Of a stretch of 60,486 bases of DNA, positions 13,909 to 51,534 are shown piece after piece; the first letter of the stretch is position 1; every line of letters starts with the position of its first letter. The notes below the pieces were generated by a model. That model had not been told where the DNA came from, ran no database searches, and saw only the letters and a program-made list of their open reading frames with translations. The translations under genes were made by a program, and so were the position numbers. This DNA comes from an uncultured virus (IMG/VR IMGVR_UViG_3300025098_000017) (taxonomy: Duplodnaviria; Heunggongvirae; Uroviricota; Caudoviricetes; Kyanoviridae), in the IMG/VR virus record IMGVR_UViG_3300025098_000017. One strand, written 5' to 3'.

Positions 13909-13980
13909 CTCCCCCTCCTGGGATCGAACCAGGGACAAATTGATTAACAGTCAACCGCTCTACCGCTGAGCTAAGGAGGA
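13909..13980 (-). tRNA. trnN: tRNA-Asn(GTT), no encoded CCA
   Basis: Cloverleaf TCCTCCT TAGCTCAGCGGTAGAGC G GTTGA CTGTTAA TCAAT ... CCTGG TTCGATC CCAGG AGGGGGA G. Confidence 0.95.
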
Positions 13981-13985
13981 TTGAG

Positions 13986-14057
13986 AGCCTCTGACAAGAT
14001 TTGAACTTGCGACCTGAGCTTTACAAAAGCCCTGCTCTACCACTGAGCTACGGAGGC
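13986..14057 (-). tRNA. trnT: tRNA-Thr(TGT), no encoded CCA
   Basis: GCCTCCG TAGCTCAGTGGTAGAGC A GGGCT TTTGTAA AGCTC ... GCAAG TTCAAAT CTTGT CAGAGGC T; one C-A mismatch in the acceptor stem. Confidence 0.9.
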
Positions 14058-14245
14058 ATTTTATCATACTCTTTCTTCGTTTTGAAGTAGAGTTTATAGT
14101 AGGGTTTTTTCATTTCATCGAGGATTTTCATATCCTCTTCAAAACCCATCCACTTACAAAGTTGATAGGATCCCTCTAACTCACTAATTAACCTTAGTAT
14201 GTTAGCAGGATGCCTTTCAAGACCACCAAAGTCATATTTACCCAT
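14048..14245 (-). CDS. hypothetical protein
   Basis: 65-aa ORF; stop codon lies inside the 5' end of tRNA-Thr. Confidence 0.6.
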   Translation of the reverse strand: MGKYDFGGLERHPANILRLISELEGSYQLCKWMGFEEDMKILDEMKKPYYKLYFKTKKEYDKMPP

Positions 14246-14251
14246 GTGCTG

Positions 14252-14509
14252 TTAAAGTCCATCCGTGACTATAGGAGTAGAGAGACTTGAACTCTCACGA
14301 GCATATTGCTCAACAGATTTTAAGTCTGGTGCGTCTACCGATTCCGCCACACTCCCATCGGGGTTGTAGATTGGAGGATGAAATGCACAATACTCATTGA
14401 ATGTGATTTTCATTTCCTTCTCAGTAAGGTTAGCATTTTTTGCTGCCTTTGGCAAGTTCCATTTTGCTGACCAAAGATTTTCCATTGATTCGCGGGTTTC
14501 AGGTCTCAT
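14252..14509 (-). CDS. hypothetical protein whose frame reads through tRNA-Leu
   Basis: ATGA coupling with the upstream gene; protein-like N-terminus WSAKWNLPKAA. Confidence 0.6.
   Translation of the reverse strand: MRPETRESMENLWSAKWNLPKAAKNANLTEKEMKITFNEYCAFHPPIYNPDGSVAESVDAPDLKSVEQYARESSSLSTPIVTDGL
14272..14356 (-). tRNA. trnL: tRNA-Leu(TAA), long variable arm, no encoded CCA
   Basis: GGGAGTG TGGCGGAATCGGTAGACGC A CCAGA CTTAAAA TCTGT ... GAGAG TTCAAGT CTCTC TACTCCT A. Confidence 0.93.
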
Positions 14510-19172: not shown

Positions 19173-19180
19173 TATTTATG
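19173..19180 (-). promoter_or_regulatory. late promoter CATAAATA for gp5, overlapping the tRNA-Val 3' end
   Basis: NATAAATA motif 25 nt upstream of the gp5 ATG. Confidence 0.6.
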
Positions 19181-19250
19181 GGCGAAGAGGGGATCGAACC
19201 CCCGACAACCTCCGTGTAAAGGAGACACTCTACCGCTGAGTTATTCGCCC
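19179..19250 (-). tRNA. trnV: tRNA-Val(TAC), no encoded CCA
   Basis: GGGCGAA TAACTCAGCGGTAGAGT G TCTCC TTTACAC GGAGG ... GGGGG TTCGATC CCCTC TTCGCCC A. Confidence 0.95.
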
Positions 19251-46960: not shown

Positions 46961-47053
46961 GTAAGACCATCAGGGAATGGTGGAGTTACTATTCCTCTAC
47001 GCCCTAGGTAGAGGTATGAAAGACGTGTTTAGACACCCTATAGGTCTTGGTTT
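46961..47053 (-). ncRNA. PhotoRC-II-like structured RNA in the psbA 5' UTR
   Basis: AAGACC...GGTCTT closing stem, CCTCTAC/GTAGAGG and ACCAT/ATGGT arms; position upstream of phage psbA matches the described motif (recalled, not searched). Confidence 0.7.
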
Positions 47054-47110
47054 GAGGAGTGTTACAACGTGTTAAGAAATGTGTTGGTCTCTTAACTTGC
47101 TGATGTATTT

Positions 47111-49353: not shown

Positions 49354-49427
49354 CGGGTCAGGCAGGACTCGAACCTGCGACCGACTGCTTAGAAGGCAGT
49401 TGCTCTATCCATCTGAGCTACTGACCC
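49354..49427 (-). tRNA. trnR: tRNA-Arg(TCT), no encoded CCA
   Basis: GGGTCAG TAGCTCAGATGGATAGAGC A ACTGC CTTCTAA GCAGT ... GCAGG TTCGAGT CCTGC CTGACCC G. Confidence 0.95.
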
Positions 49428-51049: not shown

Positions 51050-51074
51050 AAAAAAGCACCCGTATGGGTGCTTT
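51050..51074 (-). terminator. rho-independent terminator
   Basis: AAAGCACCC-ATAC-GGGTGCTTT TTT. Confidence 0.85.
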
Positions 51075-51097: not shown

Positions 51098-51241
51098 TCA
51101 ACTTTGTGAAGCAAACTTCTTCTCAACTTTGATACCACGATACATTAGATTGTGATTACGTTGAGCAGTTTGCTCTGAAAGAACCTTTGCTTTGTAGCTT
51201 TCTGCGTCATACTTGACGCCACGATAAGTGATCTGTGTCAT
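51098..51241 (-). CDS. DUF4278-like small protein (47 aa)
   Basis: MTQITYRGVKYDAESYKAKVLSEQTAQRNHNLMYRGIKVEKKFASQS: doubled YRG motif; AGGAG SD. Confidence 0.8.
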   Translation of the reverse strand: MTQITYRGVKYDAESYKAKVLSEQTAQRNHNLMYRGIKVEKKFASQS

Positions 51242-51275
51242 GTTGTTACTCCTGAAGATAGGGTGGTTTATTCCC

Positions 51276-51499
51276 CCGTTCCTTCAGTCGTGTGCGTCCC
51301 ATGGGTAGCAATCAGGGGTTGATTCCTTCATGACCTCAATTAATTCCACCTTATATTCGGTAGGAATATTCTCATTTGTTCTCATCCGAAGCATAATTGC
51401 ATCAGCTTGAGCACATGTGAGTGATGAATAGAATAATAATTCAATCATGGGATGAACGCTCCGTTCCGCGACTTACTTGCGTCCCCGAAGGGATGAACG
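51276..51499 (-). ncRNA. doubled glutamine-riboswitch-like element (glnA/Downstream-peptide type)
   Basis: Two CGTTCA-TCCC...GGGA-CGCA units and two GGAACG; E-loop AGTA/GAA; AGTCG/CGACT stem; upstream of a YRG peptide gene. Confidence 0.75.
51284..51448 (-). CDS. small protein (54 aa) encoded within the riboswitch-like element
   Basis: MIELLFYSSLTCAQADAIMLRMRTNENIPTEYKVELIEVMKESTPDCYPWDAHD; GGAG about 10 nt upstream. Confidence 0.6.
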   Translation of the reverse strand: MIELLFYSSLTCAQADAIMLRMRTNENIPTEYKVELIEVMKESTPDCYPWDAHD

Positions 51500-51526
51500 T
51501 AAGATGTGATGAATTCATCACAATAC

Positions 51527-51534
51527 TATTTATA
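51527..51534 (-). promoter_or_regulatory. T4-type late promoter TATAAATA
   Basis: Exact consensus about 28 nt upstream of the riboswitch-like element. Confidence 0.75.

Follow-up and report, generated by a model that had tools for sequence, protein, structure and literature searches.

The stretch of DNA considered here, called the window throughout, comprises 60,486 nucleotides (nt) of an uncultured virus of the Kyanoviridae (IMG/VR record IMGVR_UViG_3300025098_000017). Its minus strand carries a leader composed of glutamine riboswitch parts, and a complete open reading frame (ORF) of 54 amino acids (aa), ORF54, is enclosed in this leader. ORF54 is followed by a 47-aa gene for an IF17-like DUF4278 protein. 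As part of the explanation considered best below, it seems slightly more likely than not that promoter, glutamine-sensing leader, ORF54, DUF4278 gene and terminator form one small transcription unit in this order. Riboswitch aptamers are usually seen as compact, non-coding sensors located before genes, whereas here a gene is located inside the sensor, and about 25 bases have a double role, in codons and in the ligand-side core. The element is a widespread and apparently undescribed form of a known riboswitch class.

Architecture of the leader

All leader coordinates refer to the minus strand of the window (Table 1). In strand order, the leader reads CGUUCA-UCCC-UUCG-GGGA-CGCAAGUAAGUCGC-GGAACG-GAG, then CGUUCA-UCCC-AUG-ORF54-CAU-GGGA-CGCACACGACUGAAGGAACGG, and finally GGGAAUAAACCACCCUAU-CUUCAG-GAG-UAACAAC-AUG. 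Each half of the sensor is present twice, the 5′ half as CGUUCA-hairpin-ACGCA and the 3′ half as GGAACGG, so that two registers of pairing are possible. The first 5′ half and the first 3′ half are referred to as unit 1, the second ones as unit 2 or the inner unit. The two arms of the inner P2 stem, UCCCAUG and CAUGGGA, are complementary over seven bases and lie 142 nt apart. The last codons of ORF54, UGG GAC GCA CAC GAC (W D A H D, 51301-51287), and its stop codon UGA (51286-51284) fall in GGGACGCACACGACUGAAGGAACG, the 3′ half of the sensor. Between the units, a perfect hairpin is formed by GAACG (51466-51462), GAG and CGUUC (51458-51454), and a GGAG resembling a Shine-Dalgarno (SD) sequence lies within and beside its loop.

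These observations bear out most of a preliminary description of the stretch, in which a whole 54-aa gene had been placed in the P2 loop of an inner aptamer unit. Its ATG had been assigned to a 5′ arm (TCCC-ATG) complementary to CATGGGA downstream, an SD-like GGAG to the hairpin, and the last codons and the stop to the 3′ strand of the aptamer. The YRG peptide noted downstream is the product of the DUF4278 gene. Other claims had to be corrected. The supposed Cys-x-Cys peptide has its cysteines 35 residues apart, at positions 12 and 47, and in place of two independent aptamers, the best-supported fold has a single outer aptamer of type I, whose P3 encloses the ORF hairpin.

Table 1. Elements of the leader and of its immediate surroundings; (1) and (2) denote the first and second copy of a repeat.
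Feature	Position	Strand	Remarks
TATAAATA box, T4-late-promoter-like	51527..51534	-	27 nt upstream of the first CGUUCA
Palindromic hairpin UGUGAUGAAUUCAUCACA	51505..51522	-	7-pair stem; presumed 5′ end of the RNA
CGUUC(1), outer P1 5′ strand	51495..51499	-	Partner GAACG(2) 51281-51277 in the nested fold
Outer P2 hairpin UCCC-UUCG-GGGA	51482..51493	-	Placed by Rfam alignment; 3 stem pairs with changes on both sides in relatives
CGCAAGUA, linking strand and E-loop 5′ half	51474..51481	-	One base off the Rfam Glutamine consensus CGGAAGUA
AGUCG, outer P3 5′ strand	51469..51473	-	Partner CGACU 51290-51286
GGAACG(1), 3′-half repeat of unit 1 and 5′ strand of the inner hairpin	51462..51467	-	
GGAG, SD-like box	51459..51462	-	10 nt before the ORF54 AUG
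CGUUCA(2), 5′-half repeat of the inner unit and 3′ strand of the inner hairpin	51453..51458	-	
UCCCAUG, inner P2 stem 5′ arm	51446..51452	-	Includes the ORF54 start codon 51448-51446
ORF54	51284..51448	-	54 aa; phrog_504; Cys12 and Cys47
CAUGGGA, inner P2 stem 3′ arm	51297..51303	-	Codes for part of P-W-D
CGCACA, linking strand of the inner unit	51291..51296	-	Ala-His codons
CGACU, outer P3 3′ strand	51286..51290	-	Its U is the first base of the ORF54 UGA stop
GAAGGAACG, E-loop 3′ half and outer P1 3′ strand, or inner pseudoknot helix	51277..51285	-	Exact match to the Rfam Glutamine consensus
CUGAAG, 5′ strand of the SD-masking (platform) helix	51282..51287	-	Includes the ORF54 stop UGA
CUUCAG-GAG, 3′ strand of the platform helix	51249..51257	-	Overlaps the AGGAG SD (51253-51249) of the downstream gene
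DUF4278 gene, IF17-like	51098..51241	-	47 aa; two YRG motifs; PF14105 28.6 bits (cut-off 25.3); phrog_5049
Intrinsic-terminator-like hairpin and U run	51053..51074	-	9 pairs, 5 of them G-C, then TTTAGT; 3′ of the DUF4278 gene

Distribution of the layout

Leaders were gathered from 18 annotated phages via the encoded protein and from IMG/VR contigs via a pattern for the 3′ half and a pattern for unit 1. A third set of 71 IMG/VR loci was collected via peptide words of a divergent homologue, independently of the RNA motifs. There were 135 distinct leaders with unit 1, of which 122 were parsed; the 13 dropped were truncated or had variant 3′ halves, some of which are explained by the protein-first loci described below. 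The same layout was found in 19/19 loci from different cyanophage genera, in 116 of the 122 parsed RNA-motif loci and in 64 of the 65 parsed protein-first loci, and it is maintained in hundreds of phages belonging to at least 15 genera.

The inner stem-loop houses an ORF of 49-66 aa in these 116 leaders; in the remaining six, it is a plain hairpin of 10-25 nt. In all but one of the ORF-bearing leaders (115/116) the AUG is located 9-11 nt after CGUU(C/G)A. The stop codon is the U(G/A)A of CGACU(G/A)AAGG in 111 of them, a UAG in the 3′ arm in three, a codon 13 nt upstream in one, and located elsewhere in one. The protein-first set (n = 65) has the 5′ half at the AUG in 64 loci and a canonical 3′ half in 54. 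Seven of its loci show CCCC...GGGG in place of UCCC...GGGA, a compensatory change from U-A to C-G, together with the tail WGAND, in which Asp is replaced by Gly. The stop codon is lost in three (CGACCCAAGG), where the ORF runs five codons further, and one locus, L264, contains a free-standing ORF devoid of sensor parts.

Pairing and covariation were counted in an alignment of 105 leaders. The complementarity of start and end proposed in the preliminary description holds in homologues for the first four pairs of the inner stem, which are always paired (105/105) and covary, the fourth pair being CG in 84 leaders, UA in 13, AU in three, UG in three and GC in two. It does not hold beyond the A of the start codon: the A is paired in 91/105 leaders, the U in 50/103 and the G in 50/102. 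Judging from these counts, the helix around ORF54 is real, and full AUG:CAU pairing is a feature of the clade of this phage only. The WDAxD ending, likewise expected in homologues, is found as a feature imposed by the RNA and not as a protein motif. Unrelated-looking families of loop ORFs also end in DAND, which indicates that the tail is dictated by the RNA and that the conserved protein core ends at the second Cys; the ending is altered in the seven loci with WGAND and missing from L264.

L264 is located at the end of an IMG/VR contig and encodes a 60-aa homologue of ORF54, with neither a CGUUCA before it nor a GGAACG after it. The database cluster matching its protein, P0086, is found on 29 contigs.

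Several other ORF families occupy the inner loop (L051, L126, L129, L110, L120, L020, L070 and others). All have two Cys residues 33-37 positions apart, and several have N-termini resembling signal peptides, for example with Lys, a Leu-rich run and an Ala-rich end. These sequence features hint that the loop ORFs encode small exported disulfide proteins. In 18 relatives, the outer P2 loop, a UUCG loop in the window, also holds an ORF, of 65-68 aa, which is annotated as gp196 in some phages (L009, L010, L017, L026, L031, L034, L037, L040, L050, L066, L073, L074, L077, L085, L092, L255 and others). Its AUG is located 10-13 nt after CGUUCA(1), its stop in the 3′ arm of the stem, and its two Cys residues about 35 positions apart. 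In a profile comparison with the ORF54 family, Cys was aligned to Cys (probability 74%, E value 2.8e-5).

A search of one genome each of 185,579 species with the 3′-half pattern gave no cellular version of the layout. The pattern was present on only five contigs, all with the phage layout. These contigs (L259-L263) belong to assemblies labelled as a Synechococcus metagenome-assembled genome (194-kb contig), Nonlabens (188-kb contig), Verrucomicrobiales, an uncultured bacterium and Euryarchaeota, and are most likely cyanophage contigs in wrong bins or cultures.

ORF54 as a protein gene

No upstream extension of ORF54 is possible, as an in-frame UAA is located nine codons before its AUG. The protein matches phrog_504, a family without known function, over its full length (E value 3e-30, residues 1-54 on profile positions 1-53 of 53). 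With tblastn, ORF54 was found in 310 phage records, all with at least 80% coverage and with identities down to 38%. Its annotated position is constant in 18 loci from different genera: it follows a small hypothetical gene or nrdB/speD, and a gene of 47-55 aa begins about 40 nt downstream. Met1, Cys12, Glu35, Cys47 and Trp50 are invariant among 17 aligned proteins.

The mean entropy of the three codon positions amounts to 0.97, 0.46 and 1.28 in 91 ORFs of the main family, and third-base variation is seen in codons whose Glu, Cys or Pro residue is invariant. Loop lengths increase in steps of three (151, 154, 157, 160 and so on). The median ratio of nonsynonymous to synonymous substitution rates (dN/dS) is 0.30 for 317 usable of 600 random pairs, the other 283 being saturated at synonymous sites. 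By these signatures, ORF54 is a real small protein gene under purifying selection, and its translation, as part of the best explanation, is somewhat probable. The last five codons show zero third-position variation in the 91 ORFs, which points to a second constraint at the level of the RNA.

AlphaFold models the protein as a two-helix hairpin (helices 12-24 and 30-43) with a mean predicted local distance difference test (pLDDT) score of 75.4. This model has no PDB match at E ≤ 0.001, the best Foldseek match having an E value of 5.9. ORF54 has no Pfam family match, and Atlas gives only its own unnamed clusters. Such results, together with inconsistent database calls (53-56 vs 79-82 aa), might be taken to mean that the loop is a non-coding extension of a structured hairpin and ORF54 an artefact of gene calling. 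This is scarcely credible, as it is contradicted by the evolutionary signature of third-position variation, indels in threes and low dN/dS. Moreover, the frame is open in 116/116 long loops, the similarity covers the full length down to 38% identity, and a homologue exists outside the aptamer.

Versions of ORF54 with 79-82 aa are given by gene callers in P0003, P0005, P0014 and about 25 other entries. In these, a linker of four nucleotides (GAGC or GAGU) opens a frame through unit 1, which reads DASKSRNG, and an upstream start is called. The longer versions are probably mis-calls.

The GAG-type linker after GGAACG(1), which completes the GGAG, is found in 109 of 116 ORF-bearing leaders and in none of the six ORF-less ones (Fisher p = 4e-7, uncorrected for relatedness), where the linker is GAU, GAA or GGUA. 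This confinement to ORF-bearing leaders supports GGAG as the SD sequence of ORF54. GGAG occurs at a distance of 4-12 nt before 7 of 86 naively called ORFs of the window, compared with a background of 2%, which is a rough baseline as the set includes spurious ORFs. Both the GGAG and the AUG of ORF54 lie inside helices in every modelled fold, so initiation needs these helices to be opened.

Nested and side-by-side folds

In the best-supported fold, the first 5′ half and the last 3′ half would combine into a complete type-I glutamine aptamer, which would represent the ligand-binding state. This aptamer would be made of P1, P2, both halves of the E-loop and P3 (AGUCG:CGACU). P3 would contain the GAACG-GAG-CGUUC hairpin and a second P2-like stem (UCCCA:UGGGA) closing around ORF54. 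Alternatively, two independent pseudoknot-type riboswitches resembling glutamine-II could be arranged in tandem, with unit 1 (51499-51461) controlling ORF54 and unit 2 controlling the DUF4278 gene. Unit 2 would then consist of CGUUCA(2), the stem around ORF54, the 3′ half and the platform helix as its P2, and the inner hairpin would be only a ligand-free alternative. Such a pair of independent riboswitches is considered unlikely as the full account; the side-by-side fold is nevertheless a live alternative, and the RNA may use both folds.

The E-loop is divided between the units, with its AAGUA half only in unit 1 and its GAAGG half only in unit 2, so that each unit alone lacks half of it. At gathering thresholds, Rfam reports no glutamine element in the window. 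At relaxed thresholds, unit 1 matches Glutamine-II (RF01704) with 26.4 bits (gathering score 33) and Glutamine (RF01739) with 25.8 bits (gathering score 35), and these sub-threshold matches to both models would suit a unit acting separately; the inner unit is not detected as Glutamine-II even then, only the first unit being matched. An alignment spanning both units cannot be scored in the window across the insert of about 200 nt. It can be scored in the ORF-less relatives, where RF01739 spans both units above its gathering score in four of six (43.6, 42.9, 40.3 and 38.4 bits) and treats the inner unit as an insert of 38-48 nt in P3, a result that supports the nested fold. Single units of these relatives stay below threshold with one exception. 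Glutamine-II scores of their inner units range from 24.2 to 34.0 bits, and the one unit of 34.0 bits passes the gathering score, which speaks for separate units, whereas the other five do not.

Conservation and covariation bear on both folds. CGCAAGUA shows no variation, GAAGGAACG is invariant except for the G/A of the stop codon, and the ACGCA of the inner linking strand is invariant, synonymous sites included. P1, formed by CGUUC(1) and GAACG(2), is paired in 98.4% of cells, but its pairs never vary and are neither proof nor disproof. P3 is paired in 105/105 leaders, the three variants being G-U wobbles; a further variant, AAGUAGGUCGC, also retains a wobble pair. This retained complementarity argues against separate units. 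The G(1):C(2) pair of the inner hairpin is G-C in 98 leaders, C-G in seven and unpaired in none, and this crossed swap supports the hairpin. The same seven sequences break one pair in each of the two side-by-side helices. Across 133 junctions, GCAACG occurs with CGUUGA in 12, with no mixed cases.

The 3′ half of unit 2 is almost never found without unit 1, as at least 70 of 73 loci with enough upstream DNA contain unit 1 or its AAGUAGGUCGC form, which is hard to reconcile with an independent second riboswitch. Candidate stand-alone compact unit-2 aptamers were dropped, as all were preceded by unit 1 or a one-base variant. For the window, energies of -77.8, -68.3 and -64.0 kcal/mol were calculated for the minimum-energy fold, the enforced nested fold and the enforced side-by-side fold, respectively. 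The nested fold is lower in energy than the side-by-side fold in 105/105 leaders (median 2.4 kcal/mol), but this is not evidence, as ViennaRNA omits the pseudoknot helix of the side-by-side fold. In favour of tandem units, sequences similar to unit 1 and unit 2 are listed as separate, side-by-side glnA RNAs by Weinberg et al. (2010), who note tandems (PMC2864571), and the platform helix covaries as P2 would.

L329 and L330 consist of a single unit with the ORF in its loop and have neither promoter nor unit 1. They are near-identical to L328 from the ORF onwards. Their single 5′ half reads CGUUCA where L328 has CGUUGA, and in all three the stop of the ORF is lost and the ORF reads through GGAACG. 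L329 and L330 appear to derive from a leader like L328, in which recombination of one CGUU(C/G)A repeat with the other deleted the DNA between them.

Expression platform

CU(G/A)AAG (51287-51282) and CUU(C/U)AG (51257-51252) form the platform helix, and the second of these strands continues into AGGAG, the SD of the downstream gene. No covariation in the leader is stronger than that between the middle base of the ORF54 stop codon and its partner 96 columns away (GC 48, AU 34, GU 22, other 1). When the window is folded without constraints, the platform helix is found in the minimum-energy structure. It covaries but closes a loop far longer than the P2 consensus of Glutamine-II, and it fits an SD-masking alternative to the type-I fold equally well. 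In the type-I fold, P3 and the E-loop use bases of this helix, so glutamine binding should free the downstream SD. The SD begins directly after the platform helix, and the downstream AUG is located 37-45 nt after the ORF54 stop in most leaders. In other phages, an alternative downstream gene of 55 aa is weakly DUF4278-like, with 19-21.6 bits, below the cut-off.

In line with a release of the SD by glutamine, glutamine riboswitches before DUF4278/gifB genes are translational ON switches that unmask the ribosome-binding site (PMC6212724, PMC6698751). The ON behaviour and the masking model are described there for gifB and for a Prochlorococcus DUF4278 leader (PMC6212724).

Some relatives (L004, L006, L009, L011, L012 and others) have an extra small hairpin, CGGAUCC-N-GAAA-N-GAGAAGGUU, between the 3′ sensor half and the SD-masking strand. 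A short stem GG(G/A)...(C/U)CC just after GAACGG seems to covary.

Proposed mechanism and alternatives

The explanation considered best, and held to be slightly more probable than improbable, is a nested aptamer with the ORF54 hairpin in P3, in which sensing and translation compete. We infer ligand binding, the direction of both outputs and their mutual exclusion from the observed anatomy, coding status and covariation. Without glutamine, CU(G/A)AAG, which holds the ORF54 stop, would pair with CUU(C/U)AG and mask the SD of the DUF4278 gene. With glutamine bound, CU(G/A)AAG would be locked in the aptamer, the SD would be free and DUF4278 would be switched on, while the stem and the inner hairpin would clamp the ORF54 start and turn ORF54 down. 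A ribosome on ORF54 would open the inner stem and, on terminating, occupy the 3′ sensor half in full. Glutamine could then not be sensed while ORF54 is translated, a mutual exclusion that the phage might use for regulation.

A more far-reaching version of this idea is put forward only tentatively. The leader may be a device with two inputs and two outputs, in which four interchangeable half-sites give either a single nested aptamer or two aptamers side by side, and the ribosome decides between them. The phage might in this way read glutamine together with translation capacity and choose between a two-Cys protein and an IF17-like regulator of glutamine synthetase. The module of aptamer and ORF might evolve as a unit that duplicates, so that both hairpins house ORFs, collapses through recombination of its repeats to single-unit forms such as L329 and L330, and swaps its cargo.

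Several points weigh against competition within a nested aptamer. GGAG is missing in 7/116 ORF-bearing leaders. Since the ORF54 start is structured in every modelled fold, an effect of glutamine on ORF54 is not evident from sequence. The inner hairpin is also present in the ligand-free minimum-energy fold, so its covariation is no proof that the nested fold is the ligand-bound one, and the crossed swap may have arisen only once in evolution. Both 5′ halves retain the full ACGCA ligand-side motif, even at synonymous sites, and together with the single-unit leaders L329 and L330 this suggests that the inner unit can probably act as an aptamer alone, as tandem units would require. Furthermore, an S-SSM7-type leader, read by eye, has a C-A mismatch in the proposed P3, and the window itself receives no Rfam glutamine call at gathering thresholds.

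Leader-ORF coupling, which is compatible with competition in a nested aptamer, is regarded as possible but doubtful. In a classical form of translational coupling, a ribosome that terminates upstream exposes a masked SD. Here, a ribosome ending at the UGA or UAA within CU(G/A)AAG would melt the masking helix and turn DUF4278 on, so that glutamine and ORF54 translation would be alternative keys. In line with this, the stop lies inside the 5′ strand of the masking helix in 111/116 leaders and covaries with the 3′ strand, and the downstream SD directly follows this helix, with its AUG 37-45 nt from the stop in most leaders. In contrast, ORF54, with its two-helix, two-Cys core under purifying selection, is more than a ribosome spacer, ORF-less relatives retain the same masking helix, and in variants with an earlier stop (a UAG in the stem or a stop 13 nt upstream) the terminating ribosome would fall short of it. 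A passenger gene, constitutively expressed and without a link to glutamine, would require only a P2 loop that tolerates any insert, the overlap being a by-product of tight packing. This is judged rather improbable, although P2 loops range from 4 to about 230 nt, several unrelated-looking ORF families are found in the loop, L264 is free-standing, and ORFs of the S-CAM1 type stop short of the sensor half. The corresponding P2/P1 loop of glutamine-II was a UUCG tetraloop in the solved structure and makes no tertiary contact there (PMC6698751). A mere passenger is at odds with a start codon that keeps its offset from CGUU(C/G)A and is always within the stem, with a stop in the platform or P3 strand in all but five leaders, with a GGAG that is found only when an ORF is present, and with the constancy of the layout over so many phages. 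Moreover, reading the ORF requires the stem to be opened, and some cross-talk is therefore physically unavoidable.

If sensing and translation do compete, the leader would connect a metabolite signal with ribosome traffic in a naturally occurring RNA device, and would offer a design principle for synthetic switches. The layout also ties the control of host nitrogen metabolism by the phage, via the IF17-like factor, to a family of small two-Cys proteins. The element escapes standard RNA scans, and its ORF is called too long by gene callers, so it is under-reported in annotations of cyanophages.

Relation to known systems

With glutamine-I (glnA RNA, RF01739), as exemplified by the Synechocystis gifB/IF17 leader (PMC6212724), the outer aptamer shares the core CGUUCA...ACG(C/G)AAGUA...GAAGGAACG and the three-way layout of P1, P2 and P3. 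Both are located ahead of a DUF4278 gene, and each has, close to where the aptamer ends on its 3′ side, a short strand capable of masking the ribosome-binding site. What sets the present leader apart is a P3 with about 200 nt of additional sequence, comprising a further 5′ half, a copy of the GGAACG repeat and an entire gene, whose start, last codons and stop are sensor bases.

Marine picocyanobacteria, which serve as hosts, use the glutamine-II class ahead of DUF4278 genes (PMC6212724, PMC6698751). With glutamine-II (Downstream-peptide motif, RF01704; structure in PMC6698751), the inner unit shares the pseudoknot-type CGUUC:GAACG pairing, the P1 stem-loop, the CGCA linker and a covarying helix around GAACGG. 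It differs from glutamine-II in that the P2-equivalent helix closes at least 17 extra nt and the P1 loop comprises 138-190 nt and is protein-coding. The exact strings of the ORF-bearing 5′ arm and of the unit-1 junction are absent from the published glnA alignment (PMC2864571 supplement 5). Two rows of this alignment, JCVI_SCAF_1101667555549 and JCVI_SCAF_1096627294440, have a long P3 insert with AAGUA...GGGAACG-like pieces (PMC2864571). The nesting of sensor parts in P3 may, by this resemblance, occur beyond the present phage group. Papers on cyanophages include a glutamine riboswitch in their inventories of phage non-coding RNAs, with no detail in the passages concerned (PMC9964418, PMC9602691). 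In the portions accessible, neither the full texts searched nor the published glnA alignment holds an account of an ORF inside the aptamer or of a nested fold.

ORFs housed in the loops of structured RNAs are familiar from group I introns, whose loops contain homing-endonuclease genes. As in these introns, the gene is located in a peripheral RNA loop that tolerates large inserts. In contrast to the introns, the RNA that houses the gene senses a metabolite and belongs to an mRNA leader, the product is not an endonuclease, and the ends of the gene overlap catalytically or ligand-relevant core bases.

Upstream-ORF coupling and leader-peptide attenuation resemble the present case in that the choice of downstream helix depends on where a ribosome stands on an upstream ORF. 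ORF54 differs from such systems in several respects. It is a conserved 54-aa protein with a single Gln codon and not a short run of regulatory codons, so the abundance of codons for the sensed amino acid that marks leader peptides is not found. The two helices of its core are conserved and Cys12, Glu35 and Cys47 are invariant, which shows constraint on the peptide, unlike in a leader peptide, and its competitor is a ligand-binding aptamer.

Genomic context and transcription

The source genome is that of a T4-like cyanomyovirus. The leader is located near nrdA, nrdB and talC, all on the minus strand in the ORF listing. A 531-base stretch has 94.5-94.7% identity to Synechococcus phage ACG-2014b, and 423 phage records were matched in all.

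Upstream of the leader, the TATAAATA box resembles the T4 late promoter consensus. It was found in 12/108 relatives; 58/108 instead have a sigma-70-like TTGAC-N16-19-TATAAT that ends 7-9 nt before CGUUCA(1). The palindromic hairpin UGUGAUGAAUUCAUCACA presumably acts as a 5′ stabiliser of the RNA.

Twenty-four public RNA runs are listed for the stretch, each of which covers only a small share of it (≤0.15). Two culture transcriptomes from one study (X11 and X12) contain very deep 60-nt contigs of a relative with about 95% similarity, confined to 51274-51471. These contigs span ORF54 and the inner unit, and one loose end runs into the platform insert of the relative. Two other runs, X1 and X2, give thin cover of the region. 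The contigs show no starts, ends or strand, and bare flanks may merely differ in sequence; the runs are a weak hint that the region is transcribed.

Elsewhere in the window, Rfam identifies a PhotoRC-II RNA at 46981-47074 on the minus strand, with 70.5 bits compared with a gathering score of 39. It also identifies five transfer RNA genes, three of which are clustered at 13909-14356, with the others at 19179-19250 and 49354-49427, all on the minus strand.

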